Source: an uncultured Gammaproteobacteria bacterium
Lineage (GTDB): Bacteria; Patescibacteriota; Patescibacteriia; Magasanikbacterales; GWA2-37-8
Assembly (NCBI GenBank): GCA_964465205.1
Contig: CAYXJO010000005.1
Coordinates: forward strand, 4,552-68,551
Direction: 5' to 3'
DNA length: 64,000 bases
Shown here: piece after piece, positions 1-8,182 of the stretch
Layout: each line of letters starts with the position of its first letter
How positions within the stretch are numbered: position 1 is the stretch's first letter
Program-made: the position numbers and the translations under genes
Notes under the pieces: generated by a model
What the model was told of the DNA's origin: nothing
Seen by the model: only the letters and a program-made list of their open reading frames with translations
Databases searched by the model: none

Positions 1-484
1 TACCACCGAGTGCCTGAACCGCCTCAAAGATAGGAATATAGTCCCGATCATTCACCAAAAACACAATGTTAGTTGCTTTGCCACTGGCGACCAGCATCAA
101 CACATCACAGATTAACTTGCCGTCAAGACCTTTTTCAGAGCGGGCAAAATGATCTCTGTACTGAGGGCTCAATTTTTGCAATTCTTCATCCGGAACGGTT
201 TCTATCGGTTCGCCGCACTCCTTTATTTGCCAATGATTTTTCTTGCCGGGCTCATCTGCTTCCGGCACAACAAGCATCGTTTTTATACGATTGTCATTTT
301 GTTTAAAATAATAGACAATACGAATCGTAGAGCCAACCCAAAGAGACCATTTTCGCATCAGTGCTTCTGTAAGAAGAGATATGTTCAATTTCTTATCATG
401 ATATTCCGTGTGCGTTCTCCTTATTTCATGGATGCTTGAAAATAAATGCGAACCGTCAATTATAAAATATCCTCTGTTATCCAT
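1..484 (-). CDS. NYN-domain (PIN-like) nuclease family protein, partial (runs off left edge of window)
   Basis: Not in the ORF track because it has no stop in the window. Minus-strand translation from ATG (482-484) is open to position 1: MDNRGYFIIDGSHLF...GKLICDVLMLVASGKATNIVFLVNDRDYIPIFEAVQALGG, which matches the NYN/LabA-like pattern (acidic residues, SGD-DF). Starts 1 nt after the stop of the upstream gene (TAAtATG). Confidence 0.5.
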   Translation of the reverse strand, partial: MDNRGYFIIDGSHLFSSIHEIRRTHTEYHDKKLNISLLTEALMRKWSLWVGSTIRIVYYFKQNDNRIKTMLVVPEADEPGKKNHWQIKECGEPIETVPDEELQKLSPQYRDHFARSEKGLDGKLICDVLMLVASGKATNIVFLVNDRDYIPIFEAVQALGG

Positions 485-485
485 A

Positions 486-782
486 TTATCTTTCACCACA
501 AAGAGGGTGGTATTTAGTTCTAATTAACCTTTCAAGTAATAAACGAAAGTTTTGGTCATTGCTTATATAGATATAAAGGCCGGTTTCACCAACTCCATTT
601 CTATACCAACACGTTTTTCGTTCGTGGTTTGGTATTCGAGAATTTATGTCACCCGTTTCTCCAACATCTACAACCTGATTATTATTATTTACTAATACAT
701 AAACACAGCCAAAATTTTGATTAAATTTTTTTGTGTGATAGTATGGTCCGGAAAATTGGAACCCCTCAATTTGAATAGCCAT
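486..782 (-). CDS. GIY-YIG nuclease domain protein (stand-alone, 98 aa)
   Basis: CVYVLVNNNNQVVDVGETGDINSRIPNHERK matches the GIY-(x10)-YIG-T...R...H(E) spacing of the GIY-YIG catalytic module. Confidence 0.55.
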   Translation of the reverse strand: MAIQIEGFQFSGPYYHTKKFNQNFGCVYVLVNNNNQVVDVGETGDINSRIPNHERKTCWYRNGVGETGLYIYISNDQNFRLLLERLIRTKYHPLCGER

Positions 783-790
783 ATTATTTA

Positions 791-1231
791 TTAATCAAAA
801 AATGATATCAAACAGTCATTTTTTATTTTAATATCATGTTCCCAAAATCTGCATACTTTCCAACCATTCCTTTTTAAGAAAGCGGTTGTTTTTATGTCCC
901 TTCGTCTATTGTTTTCAATTTTATTCCGCCAAAAATCATTTTTTAATAAGTGCTTCCATCTTGGATACTGCCAACCGTGCCAAAAATCACTATCTAAAAA
1001 AATACAAATTTTTTGTTTTGAAAAAACTATATCTGGATTCCCTCGCATACCACGAACATGCGTTTGAAACTTTACCTTCGTTTTTTTACGCAATTCCTTA
1101 ATAAAATCAGTTTCAAATTTGGTATTTTTTGAACGAATATGCGACATCAGCGATGATCTCTTTTTTGTCGAAAGTTTATCCGGCCTCCTCTTGGATTTGA
1201 AATTTCTGCCAAGATAATTTTTAATTACCAT
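791..1231 (-). CDS. vsr: Very-short-patch-repair (Vsr) DNA mismatch endonuclease
   Basis: MSHIRSKNTKFE...GNPDIVF...IFLDSDFWHGW...FWRNKIENNRRRD...GWKV..FWEH aligns motif-for-motif with E. coli Vsr (RSKNMR, PDFV, GCFWH, FW..KI..N..RD, GW.V..WE). Start chosen at M18 (1231), giving a TAAtATG junction with the upstream gene. Confidence 0.8.
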   Translation of the reverse strand: MVIKNYLGRNFKSKRRPDKLSTKKRSSLMSHIRSKNTKFETDFIKELRKKTKVKFQTHVRGMRGNPDIVFSKQKICIFLDSDFWHGWQYPRWKHLLKNDFWRNKIENNRRRDIKTTAFLKRNGWKVCRFWEHDIKIKNDCLISFFD

Positions 1232-1232
1232 A

Positions 1233-2264
1233 TTATAATCCCAAATGGAACACTTCGGAAGGTAAACAGCCGTCAAAATCATTCTTTTTATCGATCAAAT
1301 CCAACCACTGCTTTAATCTATTGGTGTTCACTTTGTCCACACGCCAATAATAGGCTAACTTTGCCGGATCTAAGGTGTTAATGGTGGATTTTATGTCTCC
1401 AGCGTATTCTTTGAGGTGATGCAAAATTCTTGGCACTGTTATTTTGCGTTTTCCAATTTTTACATTCTGTTGACCGCCGGCCGTGAAAGTATCTCGAATA
1501 TTCGAACTGACGGCGCCGTAGTTCGTGACTAGATACGAAGCCACTCTTTCAAATTTTAACGAGCTGGATCCAAAAATTTCAGGAAATAATATCATGCTCT
1601 CTAAAATAAATTTTGTCTTTTCTTTCTCGCTAAATTTACTAAAAGGTCGAATTATTGGATTCGCAGCGGCATCCGGCTGATCAATCCACCATAGTTCTTC
1701 ACCGTCGGTTAATTGTTTGCGATAATAATCCTTAATTCTTTGAATCGGATTTTCTTCTTTTCTTAGCGTGTCATAATCCACGCCTATCTTATTAAAAATC
1801 GACTGTCCATTCGCCAAATCCATGTTGATTTTGTAGCGAGGTGAGTGTGTCACGCCTACATCGCATAAACAGTCCTGGTATAGTCGGTATTTAATGTCGA
1901 AACCACCACCAAACTTACCGAAAAACATAAAAATTTTTTCGACCCCGTCTACCCGCGTGGTTTCTAAAACACTATTACCGGTTGACATCCACTTATCGTC
2001 TGTGGTCGCCTTAACTTCGGTCCCGAAAAATTTTTTCGCTATTATGTCAGGGAATGTCTGTGGGCCCGTTTGAACAACATCCCCCGCGAAAGCCGTGCCC
2101 TTAGATGCCTTTAACATCATCTGAAAGGTTAGATTTTCAAATTCCACTCCACCCATTTTCTTTATGGAGTTTTGTTGAATGTCCTTGACGCACAAATTTT
2201 TAGTGACTGATAGCAAACTAACAAAATCACTTTCTTTGATTTGGCCATTTTTAACGTAAATCAT
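1233..2264 (-). CDS. Putative PD-(D/E)xK type II restriction endonuclease (cognate R of the downstream/upstream Dcm-type MTase)
   Basis: 343-aa protein with no recognisable family. Contains FPDIIAKKFFGTEVK (PD...ExK spacing typical of the restriction-endonuclease fold). Sits between a C5-MTase and Vsr in one operon, which is the classic R position. Confidence 0.4.
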   Translation of the reverse strand: MIYVKNGQIKESDFVSLLSVTKNLCVKDIQQNSIKKMGGVEFENLTFQMMLKASKGTAFAGDVVQTGPQTFPDIIAKKFFGTEVKATTDDKWMSTGNSVLETTRVDGVEKIFMFFGKFGGGFDIKYRLYQDCLCDVGVTHSPRYKINMDLANGQSIFNKIGVDYDTLRKEENPIQRIKDYYRKQLTDGEELWWIDQPDAAANPIIRPFSKFSEKEKTKFILESMILFPEIFGSSSLKFERVASYLVTNYGAVSSNIRDTFTAGGQQNVKIGKRKITVPRILHHLKEYAGDIKSTINTLDPAKLAYYWRVDKVNTNRLKQWLDLIDKKNDFDGCLPSEVFHLGL

Positions 2265-2271
2265 ACTGCGA

Positions 2272-4029
2272 TTATTTTAAATTTTCATCTAAAAATTTTT
2301 CTATGGACGCGGCAACGTGCCAAGCCAAAACTGGCGGCACGGCGTTTCCGATTTGTTTGTAAGCTGCCGAGGTGGAGGGATAAAACACAAAATCATCGGG
2401 AAAAGACTGGATTCGCGCCGCTTCTCTAGCTGACAGTCTTCTTTTACCGTTCCAGTGATACTCTATATTGCCGTGATGTTCAGTGCGCATTGTTGGGCCG
2501 GGTTTATCGGGGGAAACCGTGTTGTTACCTTGTCCATTATTTTTTATCGCTTTGGACCAAAAATGATTAGGAGCGGCGCCCTCTTTCACCTTTTCTAGAT
2601 CACCGATGGCTTGTTTGAGTGGCACCCAATTATCTTTTGTTAGTATGGGATCTGGATGACTAAATGGCGGAAGTTTACTTTTGAGCGTGCCGACAATAAT
2701 AACCCTCTGCCTAATCTGTGGCACGCCGTAGTCGGCGGCGGTAAGTAATTTATATACCACATGGTACCCTAAGGCCGCAAAATCCTTTACAATTGTTTCG
2801 ATGGCCGCGCCGTCGTTCATTGTTAAAAGTCCACGAACATTTTCGGCGACAAAAAGCACCGGTTTCGTTCTTCGGATAACTTCAATCATGCTTTGATACA
2901 AAAGACCACGTTTGCTGTTAAAACCTTTGCGCTTGCCGGCGTGGCTAAAATCCTGACACGGGAATCCACCCAAAACAATGTCAACTTTCGGCGGAATCGG
3001 TTTATCTAACGAGGAAACCTTTTTGTTATCAAGAATTTGTCTAATATCACCACACACGATCGGGTGTTTGAAGTATCTTTGATAAGTAACGCAAGCGTGT
3101 TCGTCAAAATCGTTAGCCCAAACGATTTCAAATTTATTTGCTTTGTATTTTTTGCCCAAAGAATTAAATCCTCCGGTAAAGCCTAGGTCCAACCCGCCGC
3201 AACCGGCGAACAATGACGCAACTGTGTATTTGTTTTGAATATTATTTTTCATAATTAAATTTTCGTAATTTCCATAAATGTTTGCTTGGTGAGTGTCCAC
3301 CAACACATCGAATAATGTTGATAGTTGGCCTTCAGCTAAATACTTGACATTGTTAAAATCCGCGCCGTTTTTCGCCCCCAAAACGCTATGAGCGTTTTTA
3401 TCTCCTATTATTATAAAGTCCAAAACATTAATACCCATTGTTTTGCCGGCGGTGACGATCTCGCTGGCAATTTGTTCATCTTGGACGCTTGGCGTTGGAT
3501 CGCCCGACGGATGATTATGTAACAATATAACGCTGGCCGCTCTAAGTTCCAAAGCGGGCGCGAAAACGTCACGGGGGTGAATTATACTTCGATCTAAAGT
3601 GCCGACCGAAATAATTTCTTTTTTAATCAGCGCGCAACGAGCGTTTAAATATAAACAAATTAAATGCTCTTGTTTTTTATCTCTTAAATCTGACGCCATG
3701 GCGACTGCGTCGCCGGGCGACAATATAATTTTTTCCAAAATATTCTGTTTATCAAAATATCTTTTCGCCAAGGATAGCATGGCTGTTATTTGTAAGGCTT
3801 TAGCCTGGCCAATACCTTTGATTTGTTTGAGGTCGTCAACCGTTGCGTTTAGAAGATTGCCACCAAATTTATTAACAATCTTTTGCGCCAAAACTTTCAC
3901 ATTAACGCCTTTAATTCCATTGCCCAAAACAATCGCTAACAGCTCCGCGTCAATTAAGGCGTCGGGGCCTTTCTCTAAAAATTTTTCTCGAGGCCGTTCA
4001 AATTTAGGAGTATCCTTTATCTTTACCAT
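2272..4029 (-). CDS. Fusion protein: N-terminal RadC-like (HhH + JAB/MPN) domain, C-terminal C5-cytosine DNA methyltransferase (Dcm-type)
   Basis: N-terminal ELLAIVLGNGIKGVNV...LLHNHPSGDPTPS (RadC/UPF0758 JAMM motif HNHPSG). C-terminal FAGCGGLDLGF (motif I), GGFPCQDFSHAGKRKG (motif IV PCQ), FVAENVRGL (motif VI ENV), QIRQRVIIVG (VIII) and IGNAVPPVLA (X). Single uninterrupted 585-aa ORF. Confidence 0.8.
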   Translation of the reverse strand: MVKIKDTPKFERPREKFLEKGPDALIDAELLAIVLGNGIKGVNVKVLAQKIVNKFGGNLLNATVDDLKQIKGIGQAKALQITAMLSLAKRYFDKQNILEKIILSPGDAVAMASDLRDKKQEHLICLYLNARCALIKKEIISVGTLDRSIIHPRDVFAPALELRAASVILLHNHPSGDPTPSVQDEQIASEIVTAGKTMGINVLDFIIIGDKNAHSVLGAKNGADFNNVKYLAEGQLSTLFDVLVDTHQANIYGNYENLIMKNNIQNKYTVASLFAGCGGLDLGFTGGFNSLGKKYKANKFEIVWANDFDEHACVTYQRYFKHPIVCGDIRQILDNKKVSSLDKPIPPKVDIVLGGFPCQDFSHAGKRKGFNSKRGLLYQSMIEVIRRTKPVLFVAENVRGLLTMNDGAAIETIVKDFAALGYHVVYKLLTAADYGVPQIRQRVIIVGTLKSKLPPFSHPDPILTKDNWVPLKQAIGDLEKVKEGAAPNHFWSKAIKNNGQGNNTVSPDKPGPTMRTEHHGNIEYHWNGKRRLSAREAARIQSFPDDFVFYPSTSAAYKQIGNAVPPVLAWHVAASIEKFLDENLK

Positions 4030-4030
4030 A

Positions 4031-4255
4031 TCATTTGATCAATTCATCAATACTAATTTCCAACCCGGCCGCAATTTTCACGACGGTTTGTATAGATGGC
4101 TTGGTGATAACATTCGATTCAATTTTTGTGAGCGTGGCGTATGGAATATCACATTTCCGCGCCAGTTTATCCTGCGTCAAACCCTGCTTCATGCGCAGTT
4201 TTTGAATCTTATCCCCAACTGTCTCTTGTTTGTTTTTACTTTTTCCACTATCCAT
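4031..4255 (-). CDS. HTH XRE-family transcriptional regulator (controller/C-protein-like)
   Basis: 74 aa, LRMKQGLTQDKLARKCDIPYATLTKIESN is a canonical Cro/C1 HTH. First gene of the operon, 1 nt upstream of the MTase ATG. Confidence 0.7.
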   Translation of the reverse strand: MDSGKSKNKQETVGDKIQKLRMKQGLTQDKLARKCDIPYATLTKIESNVITKPSIQTVVKIAAGLEISIDELIK

Positions 4256-4308
4256 AGTATAATAGTATAATAGTATAGTTAGGAAAGCATATGTCGGTTC
4301 CCAACCGA
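4256..4308 (-). promoter_or_regulatory. Operon control region: 2.5 tandem copies of AGTATAAT (minus strand ATTATACT, -10-like) abutting the C-gene ATG, plus palindrome TCGGTTcccAACCGA (4294-4308)
   Basis: Direct read of sequence. A candidate C-protein operator or promoter for the minus-strand operon. Confidence 0.35.
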
Positions 4309-4554
4309 TAATATTCTATCACGATTCGCCAAACCAATCAACAAAGAAAAGTTTGCTTTTGGCCAACATAAAGTTCGAGCCGACATTTTTACGGGTTCTT
4401 TGGCGGTTTTTACCCGCCGGAGCCCTCGTTTGTCCGGCGCGGGCGGAAGGAAGGGGTGTGGGGAGGGAATTCCGCCCGCGCGCCCCTAAATTTCGTCCAA
4501 ATCCGTTCGTATTTTTTCGTAAGTGGTGAGCCAGTCAGGACAAGTGGGGTTTTC

Positions 4555-4602
4555 GGCGATTACGCGCCAGCCCCTTTTGGCCAAACAATCGAATTTTTTG
4601 TC
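4555..4602. repeat. Left copy of a perfect 48-bp inverted repeat (GGCGATTACGCGCCAGCCCCTTTTGGCCAAACAATCGAATTTTTTGTC)
   Basis: Exact reverse complement of 6021-6068. The imperfect match extends about 10 bp further outward (GGGGTTTTC / GAAACGGCCCC). Confidence 0.9.
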
Positions 4603-4655
4603 TTGTCCCGCCACGGCGGGACGCCAAAAGCAAACTTTTCTTAATCGTTATCAAT

Positions 4656-6131
4656 ATGTTCAAATATTTTCTCTACGCTCGCAAGTCAACAGACGAGGAA
4701 GACCGTCAGGTTTTGTCCATCGAGGCCCAACTCGACGAACTCAAAGAATTTGCCGTTAAAGAAAAACTGGAAATCGTCGCCTCGTTTCACGAGGCAAAAA
4801 CCGCCAAAGAACCCGGCCGTAATATATTCGGCGAAATGTTATCGCGAATTTCCGCCGGCGAAGCCAACGGTATTTTAGCTTGGCATCCTGATCGGCTTGC
4901 CCGCAATCCGATTGACGGTGGGCAAGTGATTTACATGGTTGATACCGGAAAAATAAATTCCCTCAAATTTCCGACCTTTTGGTTCGAAGACACTCCACAG
5001 GGCAAGTTTATGCTTAACATTGCTTTCGGGCAGAGCAAATACTTCATAGATAACCTATCGGAGAATGTAAAGCGCGGGCTACGCCAAAAACTTCGCCGAG
5101 GAGAATGGCCGGGCTGGGCCCCGATAGGTTATCTAAATGATTTACGGACTCACACCATAATCGTGGACAAAGAAAAACATAAACTTGTAAAAAGGATTTT
5201 TGAAATGTACGCGACCAGCAATTATGGTTTAAGGGAACTGGCGGGCATTGCCAATAACTATGGATTGGTAAGCCAAACAAACAAAAAGATGTCGGGCAGT
5301 ATGATCCAGCACATTTTACAAAATCCTTTTTACTGCGGAGTGTTCCGTTTTAACGGCGAACTGCACGAGGCCAAACACGAGCCGATTATTACCAAGAAAC
5401 TTTTTGAAGAAGTAAAAAATGTCCTTTTGCGCCGTGGCCGTCCGCATAAAAAGAAAAAGCACGAATATATTTTCACCGGTTTAATTAAATGCGGGGTTTG
5501 CGGGTGTTATATCACGGCCGAACGGCAAAAAGGACATATCTATTATCGCTGTACCAAAAAGAAAAGCGTTTGCGATGAAAAATATGTCCGCGAGGAAGAC
5601 ATAACCGAACAAATAAAACAATTTCTTCAAAAAGTTTCTTTACCCGACGATTGGGCCGAAAAAATGTTGAATAAAATTGAGCAAGATAAAAATAACGAGG
5701 CCCAATCTAACGGTGCCCTTGTTCAATCGTGCCAAGACGAGGTACAAATAATTGATCAAAAATTAGACAAACTTTTGGACTCTCATTTGGATGGCACGAT
5801 TGAGAAGCAAATCTATATCAAAAAGAAAGAAGTTTTTATTAACAGAAAACTAACTTTAGAGGGTAAGGTCAAAGAATTTTTGAACAAGGGCGCTAATCGG
5901 CTCGAACCGGTGAGGGAATTTATTTTATCCAATATTAAAGCCAAAAAAACCGCCTTGGCGGGCGATTTGGCGGAAATTCGCGAATCATTACAAAATGTCG
6001 GCTCGAACTTTATGTTGAAAGACAAAAAATTCGATTGTTTGGCCAAAAGGGGCTGGCGCGTAATCGCCGAAACGGCCCCACATTCGACGTGGCTCCCAGG
6101 GTCGGATTCGAACCGACGACCAACTCGTTAA
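4656..6131 (+). CDS. Large serine recombinase (resolvase/invertase catalytic domain + recombinase domain + zinc ribbon)
   Basis: N-terminal YARKSTDEEDRQ...SIEAQ (catalytic Ser motif), GILAWHPDRLARN, C-terminal Cys cluster CGVCGC...YYRC. 491 aa. The last ~14 codons are read-through into the antisense strand of the tRNA. Confidence 0.85.
   Translation: MFKYFLYARKSTDEEDRQVLSIEAQLDELKEFAVKEKLEIVASFHEAKTAKEPGRNIFGEMLSRISAGEANGILAWHPDRLARNPIDGGQVIYMVDTGKINSLKFPTFWFEDTPQGKFMLNIAFGQSKYFIDNLSENVKRGLRQKLRRGEWPGWAPIGYLNDLRTHTIIVDKEKHKLVKRIFEMYATSNYGLRELAGIANNYGLVSQTNKKMSGSMIQHILQNPFYCGVFRFNGELHEAKHEPIITKKLFEEVKNVLLRRGRPHKKKKHEYIFTGLIKCGVCGCYITAERQKGHIYYRCTKKKSVCDEKYVREEDITEQIKQFLQKVSLPDDWAEKMLNKIEQDKNNEAQSNGALVQSCQDEVQIIDQKLDKLLDSHLDGTIEKQIYIKKKEVFINRKLTLEGKVKEFLNKGANRLEPVREFILSNIKAKKTALAGDLAEIRESLQNVGSNFMLKDKKFDCLAKRGWRVIAETAPHSTWLPGSDSNRRPTR
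6021..6068. repeat. Right copy of the 48-bp inverted repeat, inside the 3-prime end of the recombinase ORF and 22 bp from the tRNA-Asn 3-prime end
   Basis: Exact reverse complement of 4555-4602. Confidence 0.9.
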
Positions 6132-6164
6132 CAGCGAGCTGCGCTACCGCTGCGCTACCTGGGA
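6090..6164 (-). tRNA. tRNA-Asn (anticodon GUU), 75 nt with encoded CCA
   Basis: Hand-folded: acceptor TCCCAGG/CCTGGGA, D stem GCGC/GCGC, anticodon stem GCTCG/CGAGT with loop CTGTTAA, T arm GTCGG-TTCGAAT-CCGAC, discriminator G, CCA. Confidence 0.85.
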
Positions 6165-6176
6165 ATTTGTGAAAAT

Positions 6177-6205
6177 ATTATACTATGAGTATTGTAAACT
6201 GTCAA
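6177..6205 (-). promoter_or_regulatory. Sigma70-type promoter for tRNA-Asn (TTGACA-17-TATAAT on minus strand)
   Basis: Minus-strand TTGACAgtttacaatactcatagTATAAT ends about 12 nt before the tRNA 5-prime end. Confidence 0.6.
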
Positions 6206-6530
6206 CAGGGAGTTATTAAAATATATTAAACTGCTAAAGATGTTGTTGTCAAGTTTGTTTATTTTAGTATTTTTTTTGTTTCCATTTTAACGTGAGATAA
6301 AAATGGCTAAGTCTAGCATTAAATAAGCCGCTTTGTCGGATTTATCCACAGATTTATTTGACACTGTTCTAGTGAGTATGTTAACGTTAATGCATATGAA
6401 TTTGTCCCAGCAAAAAAATAGTAAAAGTTTAATTCAGATTTGGATGTTGATTAGCAACGTCATGTTTTATGCGTTGTTTTTTTGGTGGGGTGAAGATGAT
6501 TTTGTGAAAGCGTAATTTTGTAAAGTCATA

Positions 6531-6570
6531 ATCACCCCACCGCAAGTGGGGTGATTTAATTTGTTCTTTA
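6531..6570 (+). terminator. Hairpin ATCACCCCAC-cgcaa-GTGGGGTGAT followed by a T-rich tract
   Basis: Perfect 10-bp stem with a 5-nt loop, then TTTAATTTGTTCTTT. Confidence 0.5.
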
Positions 6571-6725
6571 AATTTAATTTGATCAGTGCTATTGGTGCGA
6601 TTGTTATCACGGAACACCCTTTTTGGATAGAACATGTTTGTCTCCAACAAAGGTGTTCCGTCTAATTGCATGCAATAACCTAGGCGGATCATATCCGGGA
6701 TCAAAAACAAAACAGGAGTACGTAC

Positions 6726-8111
6726 ATGAACGTCGAATTGCACTCTCTCTTCACTCCGCATAATGCCGAAACCAAAAATCTGGGCCCGACGATTGATCGC
6801 AAGATTCAATCTTCGGTGATGTTGTGTCACACCTTGCCAGACTACCAGGTGGTTTATCCTCAAGCCGTGGTGCAGGCACTGTGCGAATTGTACACCGAGT
6901 ACAATCTCGCCTTCCGCAAACTGGTTGAAGCCAATAGAGAATGGTCCGACGACTACCACCACTTGATGTACGGTCCCGATTGCACCCCGGTGAACTTCGC
7001 TGTCCAGATCGACATGTTGGGGTTGCCGGAGTGGTTTCTGCAAGAGGCGACGACTATGCCCGTCAACCTGTTGCGCGAACTGTTGCGCGGTACGGTGTTC
7101 GAGATCGAAAACTCCTTGGCCATGTACCAACTGCTCGAACGTACTTGTGCCAATGGCGATGGCCCGTCGTACTTCCAGCCGCGTTTTCGTCAGGCGTTGG
7201 ACGAGTTGCGCCGGCGCCACGGTAAGCCCATCGCGTTACTGGCTGTAACCCAGCAAAAGTATCAAGCGATGCGTGAGTCCGAATTTGGCAAGCAGGATGG
7301 AGACGCGCTGTCGAACCAAGAAGTTCGTGATCTGTCCGGATTCGATTACTTCTTTGGTCCTGATGAATTCCGCCACCATGTCCAAGAGAAGGGTGGATGC
7401 GAATTCATGCTGTACGTGCGTTCATCCGATCCGGTGGCCAAACTCAAGAAACCCAAATTGAGCGTCGATCATCCGCTCCTGGGCGACGCACAAATGCGCC
7501 GTGTCATCAAAGCGAACGCGATCACGTTCAATGTGGATGCTCCGGAAATGCAATACCCGCAACGCATCAACGACACCAAAGAATACATGGGTCCGCTCGG
7601 CATGGGGTACGAAATCAGCCGTGTAGAAGACCTTATGTCCGGTGAAGTGTGCGAACACCTGGCCACCAGCCATTCGTTCGAAGAATATCATGGCCAACGT
7701 TTGTCCGACGGGTTTGCTCAATACCTGGCGCGTCGTGGAATGCCGATGCAAGCAATCGAATCCGGTTCTGTCCACTTGCGGGCCAAACCGGCCAAGGGTA
7801 CTTACGGTTGCTACGGCCATGTGCGCGGCCCCTTGTCCAGCGGCGCCAAATTCCGCAAAGATTTGGCTTACGAATTGAGGCAACGAGGTGGTACATACGT
7901 GGTGCAGCCGGAAATGACCACGCCGCAGATCGTCAATACCAAAGACGGCGTCACGTACACGTACATCGATCGCAATTTTCTCGCCTTTACCAATGGCCAT
8001 CCGGTTTTCCTCGGCGGCTTCCGTTCGATGTTGCCGGTGGACACCAACGAGGCCCACAAGGGTCGAGTGCATGGTAATCGCGACACGGTCTGGGCGGAAA
8101 TCGTAGCCTAG
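6726..8111 (+). CDS. GC-rich ORFan, possible ATP-grasp-like enzyme (461 aa)
   Basis: Composition is far GC-richer than its flanks (by eye mid-50s % versus ~40%). Strong RBS AACAGGAG before the ATG. C-terminal AKPAKGTYGCYGHV...YVVQPEM...NGHP resembles the K-P-x-x-G-s-x-G-x-G-V / Q-E ATP-grasp signature. The overlapping antisense ORFs are GC-driven shadows. Confidence 0.45.
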   Translation: MNVELHSLFTPHNAETKNLGPTIDRKIQSSVMLCHTLPDYQVVYPQAVVQALCELYTEYNLAFRKLVEANREWSDDYHHLMYGPDCTPVNFAVQIDMLGLPEWFLQEATTMPVNLLRELLRGTVFEIENSLAMYQLLERTCANGDGPSYFQPRFRQALDELRRRHGKPIALLAVTQQKYQAMRESEFGKQDGDALSNQEVRDLSGFDYFFGPDEFRHHVQEKGGCEFMLYVRSSDPVAKLKKPKLSVDHPLLGDAQMRRVIKANAITFNVDAPEMQYPQRINDTKEYMGPLGMGYEISRVEDLMSGEVCEHLATSHSFEEYHGQRLSDGFAQYLARRGMPMQAIESGSVHLRAKPAKGTYGCYGHVRGPLSSGAKFRKDLAYELRQRGGTYVVQPEMTTPQIVNTKDGVTYTYIDRNFLAFTNGHPVFLGGFRSMLPVDTNEAHKGRVHGNRDTVWAEIVA

Positions 8112-8134
8112 ACCACAGATAGCACCTATCAAAC

Positions 8135-8182
8135 GGTCGTGTGCCAATCCCAATCGGATTGACACACGACCAATTCCTTTTT
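8135..8182 (+). terminator. Nested hairpin GGTCGTGTG...CACACGACC followed by AATTCCTTTTT
   Basis: 9-bp outer stem enclosing an inner CAATCC/GGATTG palindrome, then a T-run. Lies directly after the GC-rich ORF. Confidence 0.5.

Follow-up and report, generated by a model that had tools for sequence, protein, structure and literature searches.

The first 4,255 nucleotides of a 64,000-nucleotide stretch (hereafter the window) from contig CAYXJO010000005.1 of assembly GCA_964465205.1 carry six tightly packed open reading frames (ORFs) on the minus strand. They encode a C protein, a RadC::C5-cytosine methyltransferase (MTase) fusion, a Type II restriction endonuclease (REase), Vsr, a stand-alone GIY-YIG domain protein and an NYN (PIN-like) nuclease-fold protein. 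Probably this array is a co-transcribed mosaic of three modules, carried on a tRNA-targeting serine-recombinase island in the genome of an ultra-small bacterium of the Patescibacteria (the candidate phyla radiation, CPR). Two of its parts, the fusion of RadC to a restriction-modification (RM) methylase and the GIY-YIG/NYN pair appended to the RM operon, recur well beyond this window and are the main subject of this report. In what follows M, R and V stand for the MTase, REase and Vsr genes, GIY and NYN for the last two genes and their products, and L and P numbers for the loci and protein clusters compared.

Organization of the gene array and module borders

The ORF listing of the minus strand gives the following order, from the head of the array to its end, with the parts of the fusion protein indicated:

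4031-4255, minus strand: C/HTH regulator, 74 aa (module 1)
2272-4029, minus strand: RadC::C5-MTase, 585 aa, a single uninterrupted ORF
3355-4029, minus strand: RadC part of the fusion, residues 1-225, UPF0758_N/HhH and JAB with HNHPSGD...S..D
3244-3354, minus strand: linker of the fusion, about residues 226-262, in frame and stop-free
2272-3243, minus strand: C5-cytosine MTase domain of the fusion, residues 263-585, Pfam DNA_methylase
1233-2264, minus strand: Type II REase of PD-(D/E)xK type, 343 aa
791-1231, minus strand: Vsr, 146 aa when counted from the tight-junction ATG
486-782, minus strand: 98-aa protein consisting of a stand-alone GIY-YIG domain, with which module 3 begins
1-484, minus strand: protein of 227 aa with an NYN (PIN-like) nuclease fold, of which residues 1-161 fall within the window, the gene running past the window start

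The last 66 aa of NYN lie beyond the window, and its full length of 227 aa is taken from the 100%-identical protein P0121. An alternative start of Vsr at 1282 would yield 163 aa and overlap the REase gene. From C to NYN, the intergenic spacers measure 1, 7, 1, 8 and 1 nt, so that the six genes and the 1-8 nt spacing reported in the original prediction are all present. Of the three identical TAAtATG junctions that it counted, two (REase/Vsr and GIY/NYN) have this sequence, while the C/MTase junction is TGAtATG. A scan of the minus strand detected no terminator-like site at any gene junction; one weak 6-pair match (593-579) sits within the GIY ORF. The six genes form one apparent transcription unit and would be co-transcribed.

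The borders between the modules were defined by blastn comparison of the window with all the loci collected. Positions 818-4030 are homologous only to the RadC::M-R-V loci L001 and L073 (74-79%), positions 3-795 only to GIY-NYN as found among different neighbours in 11 loci (70-78%), and for positions 4033-4270 the C gene of L075 is the sole match. The GIY-NYN homology block begins at the Vsr stop codon. By this pattern of DNA homology, the array is a composite of three separately inherited modules rather than one six-gene system.

The RadC-methyltransferase fusion

Three Pfam families are found in the 585-aa protein, namely UPF0758_N (PF20582, 8e-23), RadC (PF04002, 7e-37) and DNA_methylase (PF00145, 6.8e-76). 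All the motifs on which the original prediction had relied, FAGCGG, PCQ, ENV, QIRQR and GNAV (C5 motifs I, IV, VI, VIII and X) together with HNHPSGD, are located in this single ORF. The RadC part scores 220 bits against NCBIfam PRK00024 (NF000642; cut-off 180) and corresponds to the full-length canonical form, made of an HhH-containing N-domain and JAB, not to the JAB-only version of mobile elements; the accompanying remark that RadC modules are normally small mobile-element genes is therefore unfit for this protein. The metal site H-x-H-x7-S-x2-D is present, and HNHPSGDPTPSVQD is conserved in all the fusion relatives. Stand-alone RadC proteins comprise about 220-230 aa with a C-terminal tail of their own; here RadC is fused in frame to a 323-aa MTase, and the linker replaces the C-terminal FSF..G.. 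tail seen in the RadC of L014, L020 and L057. As for the MTase domain, it matches TIGR00675 dcm (3.9e-74; 250 bits against a cut-off of 100.65) and PADLOC MTase_II (6e-99), and its best solved relative is M.HaeIII (6e-41, in an alignment that covers the catalytic core only).

Ten protein clusters (P0001-P0010), from different samples and 66-83% identical, carry RadC and the MTase in one ORF; nine are full-length and one is a 410-aa fragment. Their loci fall into four genomic contexts, and R and V are always next. The linker is 44-55% identical among the fusion relatives. Because the linker is conserved and the JAB metal site is intact across the ten clusters, a frameshift artefact, which the original prediction had named among the findings that would refute it, is excluded and the fusion is real. 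In L005/L006, RadC::M-R-V lies downstream of tRNA-Ile/tRNA-Ala, in a defence island that also contains T5orf172, an EcoRV-like REase with a D12 MTase, and an HTH-SocA/Panacea antitoxin-like gene.

The association of RadC with methylases extends beyond this family. A search made exhaustively over 1.84 billion representative proteins, then refined with Pfam, finds RadC N-terminal to other C5 methylases (P0315, P0319, P0340 and P0361), to D12-class N6-adenine methylases (P0330, P0343 and P0338) and to an N6_N4 methylase (P0399), downstream of which a gene for an EcoRII-C family REase is located. Downstream of the RadC::D12 gene of P0330, and overlapping it, lies an uncharacterised gene of at least 272 aa.

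The M-R-V cassette family

The REase has no Pfam match and no PDB match in sequence searches. It matches PADLOC REase_II (PDLC03508, 1.8e-44), and its motif P72-D73...E83-V84-K85 is invariant, in agreement with the earlier assignment of the 343-aa protein as a PD-(D/E)xK-type restriction enzyme. M and R are adjacent in 69 of 71 related loci, the other two, which lack an M match, ending at a contig edge; distant, unnamed plasmid homologs of the REase also adjoin cytosine MTases. Vsr, likewise called correctly from the letters, exceeds the cut-off of Pfam PF03852 (4e-14; 52.6 bits against 27) and matches PADLOC Vsr (3e-10), with a score slightly under the TIGR00632 cut-off (92.6 bits against 97.85). 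It is kept after the REase in most related loci.

A census in which the REase alignment was scanned over one genome per species returned 65 loci, mostly from Patescibacteria and nearly all with MTase, REase and Vsr in the same order. Their MTases are 64-79% identical to the MTase domain of the window and are normally unfused; GIY and NYN occur in none of the 65. Judged from family membership and gene order, module 2 is a variant of this widespread M-R-V Type II cassette, and its core is ordinary. In the closest fusion loci, the genes after Vsr are unrelated to GIY/NYN and belong to no significant Pfam family (85 and 356 aa in L001; 112, 233 and 206 aa in L073; 103, 113 and 176 aa in L002).

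A separate radC is placed immediately 5' of M-R-V in L020, in L057, whose M is only 36% identical, and in L014/L015, where the overlap is 4 nt. These are three independent radC-M-R-V operons among the 65 loci, against about 0.1 expected by chance, a rough estimate made for a genome of about 1000 genes. No second radC is present in the 64-kb window. In L057, 2 kb upstream of radC-M-R-V, a 157-aa ORF (3221-3694) has an N-terminus that looks NYN/LabA-like by eye (MNNYAFIDSQNLNL...).

The GIY-YIG/NYN pair

Since the window proteins fall under the Pfam thresholds, GIY and NYN were tested structurally. GIY scores 19.1 bits against PF01541 (cut-off 22.6), and a few of its homologs carry a precomputed match to this family; the 98-aa protein has the GIY-YIG alpha/beta fold, in which Y28, R49, H53 and E84 are invariant and the second motif is D-V-G, not Y-I-G. 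The 161-aa fragment of NYN alone reaches 21.8 bits against PF01936, under the cut-off of 24.2, while full-length P0121 reaches 28.4 bits and all 24 of 24 family members match. NYN shows the expected fold with a conserved acidic cluster, and ends in a disordered C-tail of about 40 aa. In PADLOC-DB v2, NYN has no match and GIY matches only PDC-S14 (E 0.0025-0.0037), with no system match.

Homologs were collected in 117 clusters for NYN and 60 for GIY, the latter at least 65% identical and of 95-100 aa, apart from two that are truncated to 68-70 aa. Scanning metagenomes with the NYN alignment yielded 45 loci. GIY directly precedes NYN in about 40 loci, and in essentially all those with upstream sequence; the exceptions are L109, where NYN stands alone in the order mod-NYN-res, and two distant NYN homologs. 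The neighbourhood survey suggested in the original prediction thus finds an obligate pair and no chance adjacency. The window REase is absent from all the GIY-NYN loci of the scan, and neither GIY nor NYN occurs in any of 72 further loci of this RM family, among them the nearest fusion relatives, which have REases 81-90% identical to that of the window.

In about 21 of 30 informative loci the pair has an RM gene as its upstream co-directional neighbour, and in 17 loci GIY starts no more than 5 nt from the upstream stop codon or overlaps it. The RM partners belong to at least eight unrelated families of Types II, III and IV. They include an M(m5C)-R.HinP1I-Vsr system, three different pairs of N6_N4 MTase and REase_II, an M-?-M(D12) set, another m5C system, an EcoRI-like MTase with GmrSD/HNH, and Type III mod/res, where the pair is placed either after res (L098 and L100) or between mod and res (L110 and L097). 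From this distribution, GIY-YIG/NYN is an obligate, portable pair riding on RM operons. The earlier notion of an RM system extended by extra nucleases holds in general, with the correction that the extension is portable and attaches 3' of many unrelated RM systems. PIN-like nucleases have been explicitly described as not seen with Type II RM (Matelska et al., 2017; PMC5499597, section 17).

A phage origin of the pair was considered and rejected, with no matches in a phage database or in IMG/VR. In some loci the surroundings are of a different kind. L085 (4966-7693), a housekeeping context, has the order ddl-dnaG-rpoD-lexA-GIY-NYN-(69 aa)-PolB-exo-like 3'-5' exonuclease-FtsK; this exonuclease family is also located downstream of RadC::M-R-V in L002-L004, an association that possibly hints at a DNA-damage link. 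In L112 (289-5598), GIY-NYN follows an Hsp70-like protein of 829 aa, a 575-aa protein that matches nothing in Pfam or PADLOC and an IetA/TRIP13-like ATPase, an array that may be another defence system.

The C gene, the serine recombinase and the inverted repeats

The features upstream of the fusion gene are as follows:

4256-4280, minus strand: TATACT/ACTAT repeats abutting the C-gene ATG, candidate C-box operator and leaderless start, read from the sequence
4313-4341, minus strand: TTGATT-17-TAGAAT with TG, a promoter-like site 5' of the C gene, from a consensus scan only and not functional evidence
4551-4604 with 4364-4389, no strand: inverted-repeat arm A, upstream of the recombinase gene
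4390-4550, no strand: 161-nt GC-rich element interrupting one recombinase-flanking arm
4656-6131, plus strand: large serine recombinase (Pfam), 491 aa, divergent from the operon
5992-6072, no strand: inverted-repeat arm A', located within the recombinase ORF at its 3' end, beside the tRNA
6090-6164, minus strand: tRNA-Asn(GTT) (ARAGORN; Rfam 70.3 bits)

The C protein matches Pfam HTH_3 (1.5e-15) and PADLOC Control_protein (1.6e-8), and it is a small Xre/HTH_3 protein at the head of an RM operon, joined to the MTase gene through TGAtATG. The order is C-M-R-V, not the one in which C directly precedes the REase gene and the MTase is expressed separately. Locus comparison indicates that the C gene follows the cassette backbone and not the M-R-V family: its homologs head other RM cassettes in 9 loci, and it is lacking in nearly all M-R-V loci, being present in only three distant ones. 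A TATACT repeat similar to that of the window also lies directly against the ATG in L075, whose C gene is 75% identical, and the C regulator probably controls its own expression from the repeats abutting its start codon.

The recombinase shows the Pfam domains Resolvase (2e-20), Recombinase (3e-19) and Zn_ribbon_recom (1e-10), and homologs 43-65% identical are similarly placed in L076, L079, L094, L095 and L108. For the recombinase, as for the C protein, the fusion and Vsr, the assignments by Pfam, NCBIfam and PADLOC agree. It adjoins both the cargo and tRNA-Asn, which confirms the location of the cluster on a serine-recombinase/tRNA island. Moreover, its ORF overlaps the 3' end of tRNA-Asn antisense by 42 nt, and the homologous recombinases of L094 and L095 overlap tRNA-Gln and tRNA-Ala, respectively, in this way. 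Arm A is 100% complementary over 54 nt to 6019-6072 and over 26 nt to 5992-6017. Perfect inverted repeats also flank the recombinase gene in L094 (69 nt; 1836-1904/3403-3471) and L095 (124 nt; 1503-1626/3109-3232). To our knowledge, there is no precedent for serine integrase genes flanked by inverted repeats of their own, and the repeat-flanked recombinase may be an invertible or IS-like unit. The repeats found around the island are inverted, rather than att-like.

A second kind of inverted repeat bounds the cargo. In every C-containing locus (L074, L075, L076/77, L088, L094 and L095), repeats of 25-185 nt, 88-100% identical, enclose C...RM...GIY-NYN (for instance 1-105/4217-4321 in L088, 27-148/3595-3713 in L075 and 3334-3460/6692-6818 in L095). 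The distal arm begins 1-10 nt past the NYN stop in L088, L095, L075 and L076/77, and 30-145 nt past it in L074 and L094. In the window, the element at 4390-4550 is 82-89% identical, in inverted orientation, to single elements that close the L001 and L073 cassettes distally, and also matches both inverted-repeat arms of L075. Several repeat arms coincide with contig ends, where their lengths may be incomplete, and 127 nt is a common assembler k-mer; the contig-end repeats fit real repeats that break assemblies, yet they limit inference.

Other features were observed in this region. A GC-rich hairpin at 4414-4522 (GGCGCGCGGGCGG...CCGCCCGCGCC), between the recombinase and the C gene, has a similar counterpart in the corresponding position of L094 (3571-3637); no Rfam family is found for it at the gathering threshold, and it could be a terminator, an insulator or a recombination site. 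Directly upstream of tRNA-Asn, at 6177-6205 on the minus strand, there is a perfect 12/12 sigma-70 consensus, TTGACA-17-TATAAT. Across tRNA-Asn from the island, a stretch of 1.7 kb (6429-8165) of 54-55% G+C, against about 40% around it, looks foreign; here a 461-aa ORF (6726-8111, plus strand), which belongs to no Pfam family, is overlapped by long antisense ORFs.

Comparison with known systems

The C5-MTase, the PD-(D/E)xK REase and the Vsr gene downstream liken the central module to Type II m5C RM systems with Vsr, such as the HpaII-type operons, and in its repair half to E. coli Dcm-Vsr, and the small HTH_3 protein at the operon head likens the array to C-controlled RM. Unlike the former, the window has a 260-aa RadC N-terminal extension on the methylase and a REase family without Pfam or PDB relative; unlike the latter, it has the C gene before M and not before R.

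The N-domain/HhH, the JAB domain and the intact H-x-H...S..D are shared with RadC proteins such as YicR/YsxA (PF04002 and PF20582). The RadC fusion partners listed in two published accounts are HhH, ArdC-N, DnaG-like primase and DinG/Rad3 helicase, with no methyltransferases among them (Iyer et al., 2011, PMC3239186; Iyer et al., 2017, PMC5512222). The fusions reported here resemble those of RadC to ArdC in their context of DNA metabolism and anti-restriction, and differ from described RadC proteins in that RadC precedes RM methyltransferases of the C5, D12 and N6_N4 classes and lacks the C-terminal tail of the stand-alone form.

With PrrC/RloC, the GIY-YIG/NYN pair shares its position as a nuclease module within or appended to RM operons, with which it is apparently co-transcribed. 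It differs in being made of two genes with GIY-YIG and NYN folds, instead of an ABC-ATPase with a HEPN-like anticodon nuclease, and in accompanying mostly Type II systems, whereas PrrC/RloC belong to Type I/III loci. In fold and conserved acidic residues NYN is close to the LabA/COG1432-type proteins (PF01936; 2qip; the MARF1 NYN domain), and in fold and conserved Tyr/Arg/His/Glu GIY is close to stand-alone GIY-YIG proteins such as the UvrC N-domain and T4 EndoII. The pair is set apart from both by forming a tight, CPR-restricted subfamily with a fixed GIY-then-NYN order in an RM-operon context, as well as by the replaced second tyrosine of GIY and the disordered tail of NYN.

Finally, the Resolvase, Recombinase and Zn-ribbon domains, the accessory cargo and the insertion beside a conserved gene (a tRNA) are features of large-serine-recombinase elements (Ccr of SCCmec, XisF, TnpX-type). 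The arrangement of the recombinase gene within perfect inverted repeats of 54-124 nt, and of the cargo within a second pair, is not known to us in such elements.

Proposed mechanism and alternative explanations

On the basis of the family assignments, the C protein would autoregulate the operon, the C5-MTase would mark and protect host sites, the REase would cut unmethylated invading DNA, and Vsr would repair the T:G mismatches produced by 5-methylcytosine deamination. RadC would act as a DNA-bound helper of the methylase and not as a second restriction enzyme; it could serve DNA binding or targeting, or the processing or alleviation of restriction damage, akin to ArdC fusions. A nucleic-acid-processing hydrolase activity was proposed for RadC by Iyer et al. 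Another candidate role, that of a protease clearing covalent adducts between C5-MTase and DNA, is disfavoured by the fusions to N6 and N4/N6 methylases, because these enzymes form no covalent intermediate. GIY-NYN would travel independently and dock 3' of different RM operons. The favoured role is that of an RM-dependent accessory nuclease pair, which might degrade or salvage restricted nucleic acid, or else act as a PrrC-like back-up or guard when restriction fails; salvage would be attractive in nucleotide-auxotrophic CPR cells. The wider proposal, in which RadC is a dedicated partner of RM methylases, GIY-YIG/NYN is an unrecognised RM-dependent accessory of CPR bacteria, and GIY-NYN, the C gene, the inverted repeats and the serine recombinase together make a platform for the swapping of RM cargo, is advanced tentatively as a possibility that falls somewhat short of even chances.

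Several observations weigh against the picture of a three-module mosaic with these roles. In a crude neighbour-joining tree of the MTase domains, that of the L005/6 fusion falls outside the other fusions; most fusion MTases group together, and the tree is too crude to tell a single from a multiple origin. The catalytic competence of GIY is uncertain because the second Tyr of its GIY-YIG motif is replaced (DVG). GIY-NYN is found without an RM neighbour after lexA (L085), after tRNA-Trp (L080) and beside a divergent gene (L089). The depletion of palindromes in the 64-kb window is weak and not decisive (observed/expected 0.68 for TGCA and 0.80 for GGCC). The tight spacing of 1-8 nt and the lack of terminators mean that GIY-NYN may be functionally integrated with this RM system. 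Lastly, the window does not reach the distal end of the cassette: a second, inverted copy of 4390-4550 is predicted just beyond the window start, because this element resembles the cassette-bounding repeats and recurs as a single copy distally in L001 and L073.

Integration of all six genes is what the original prediction had offered as one of its explanations, namely a multi-nuclease defence system in which the methylase marks self and the PD-ExK protein, Vsr, GIY-YIG and NYN are joint effectors. The six co-directional genes with their short, terminator-free junctions and the nuclease folds in all four downstream proteins speak for such a system, but GIY and NYN are missing from the 72 other loci, the nearest relatives included, they accompany at least eight unrelated RM systems and some non-RM contexts, DNA homology ends at the module borders, and PADLOC recognises no system in the pair. 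The locus surveys have largely refuted this explanation, which is now very improbable. Hardly more credit can be given to the view that the joining of RadC to the methylase arose through faulty assembly or sequencing, or through the neutral, functionally meaningless arrival of an RM cassette behind a housekeeping radC. The fused RadC is indeed of the housekeeping type, 42-56% identical to stand-alone RadC proteins, and in L020 radC is near ribosomal protein genes (ORF translations read by eye, with no family search). Nevertheless, ORF, linker and JAB motif are all retained in ten independent clusters, mobile cassettes carry the fusion in four contexts, independent fusions involve three methylase classes, and the radC-M-R-V operons exceed their roughly estimated chance expectation.

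Two further explanations concern the GIY-YIG/NYN pair, and each of them is considered unlikely. According to one, the pair is an RM-linked guard or abortive-infection module of the PrrC/RloC kind, latent until phage anti-restriction disables the RM system and then cutting cellular or phage RNA or DNA. Its location in or behind Type II, III and IV RM operons, at times between mod and res (L097 and L110), is suggestive, and has a precedent in prrC, situated within the EcoprrI hsd operon. Furthermore, NYN/PIN folds are typically RNases (PMC5499597). On the other hand, no obvious common sensor could serve eight or more structurally unrelated RM systems, the ATPase or HEPN domains of PrrC/RloC are missing, conservation as high as that of GIY (at least 65% across 60 clusters) is unusual for conflict proteins, and some loci have no RM neighbour. 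The other explanation, a serious rival in spite of its low probability, regards GIY-YIG/NYN, the C gene and the inverted repeats as the backbone of a mobile cassette, with a part in addiction, in homing or mobility, or as recombination flanks for the exchange of RM cargo. This cassette-maintenance role would explain why inverted repeats bound C...RM...GIY-NYN in all the C-containing loci, with a serine recombinase alongside, and why the RM genes vary between a conserved C gene and a conserved GIY-NYN pair; GIY-YIG is, besides, a classic homing-endonuclease fold. However, many GIY-NYN loci are devoid of C, inverted repeats and recombinase (in L119 the pair lies between rpsI and pyrD on a 594-kb contig), the 98-aa GIY protein has no DNA-recognition domain, and no boundary sequence is shared across the family beyond an AT-rich stretch of 8-10 nt before the ATG.

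Significance

The C-M-R-V core by itself is ordinary and belongs to known families. By contrast, the RadC::methylase architecture and the recurrent RM-appended GIY-YIG/NYN pair appear undescribed, since no earlier description of either was found in the literature searched, the coverage of which was incomplete and excluded REBASE. RadC is near-universal in bacteria, and its role has stayed obscure for decades ('RadC, a misleading name?', cited in PMC3239186); the fusions to three classes of RM methylases, together with the radC-M-R-V operons, provide it with a concrete and testable functional partner. The presence of GIY-NYN 3' of at least eight unrelated RM systems suggests a common accessory in genome-reduced CPR bacteria, and the layout bounded by inverted repeats and linked to a recombinase hints at how RM specificities are exchanged. 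If the wider proposal holds true, RadC could handle DNA or alleviate self-restriction during methylation, and GIY-YIG/NYN would be a nuclease for post-restriction degradation or salvage, or a guard.

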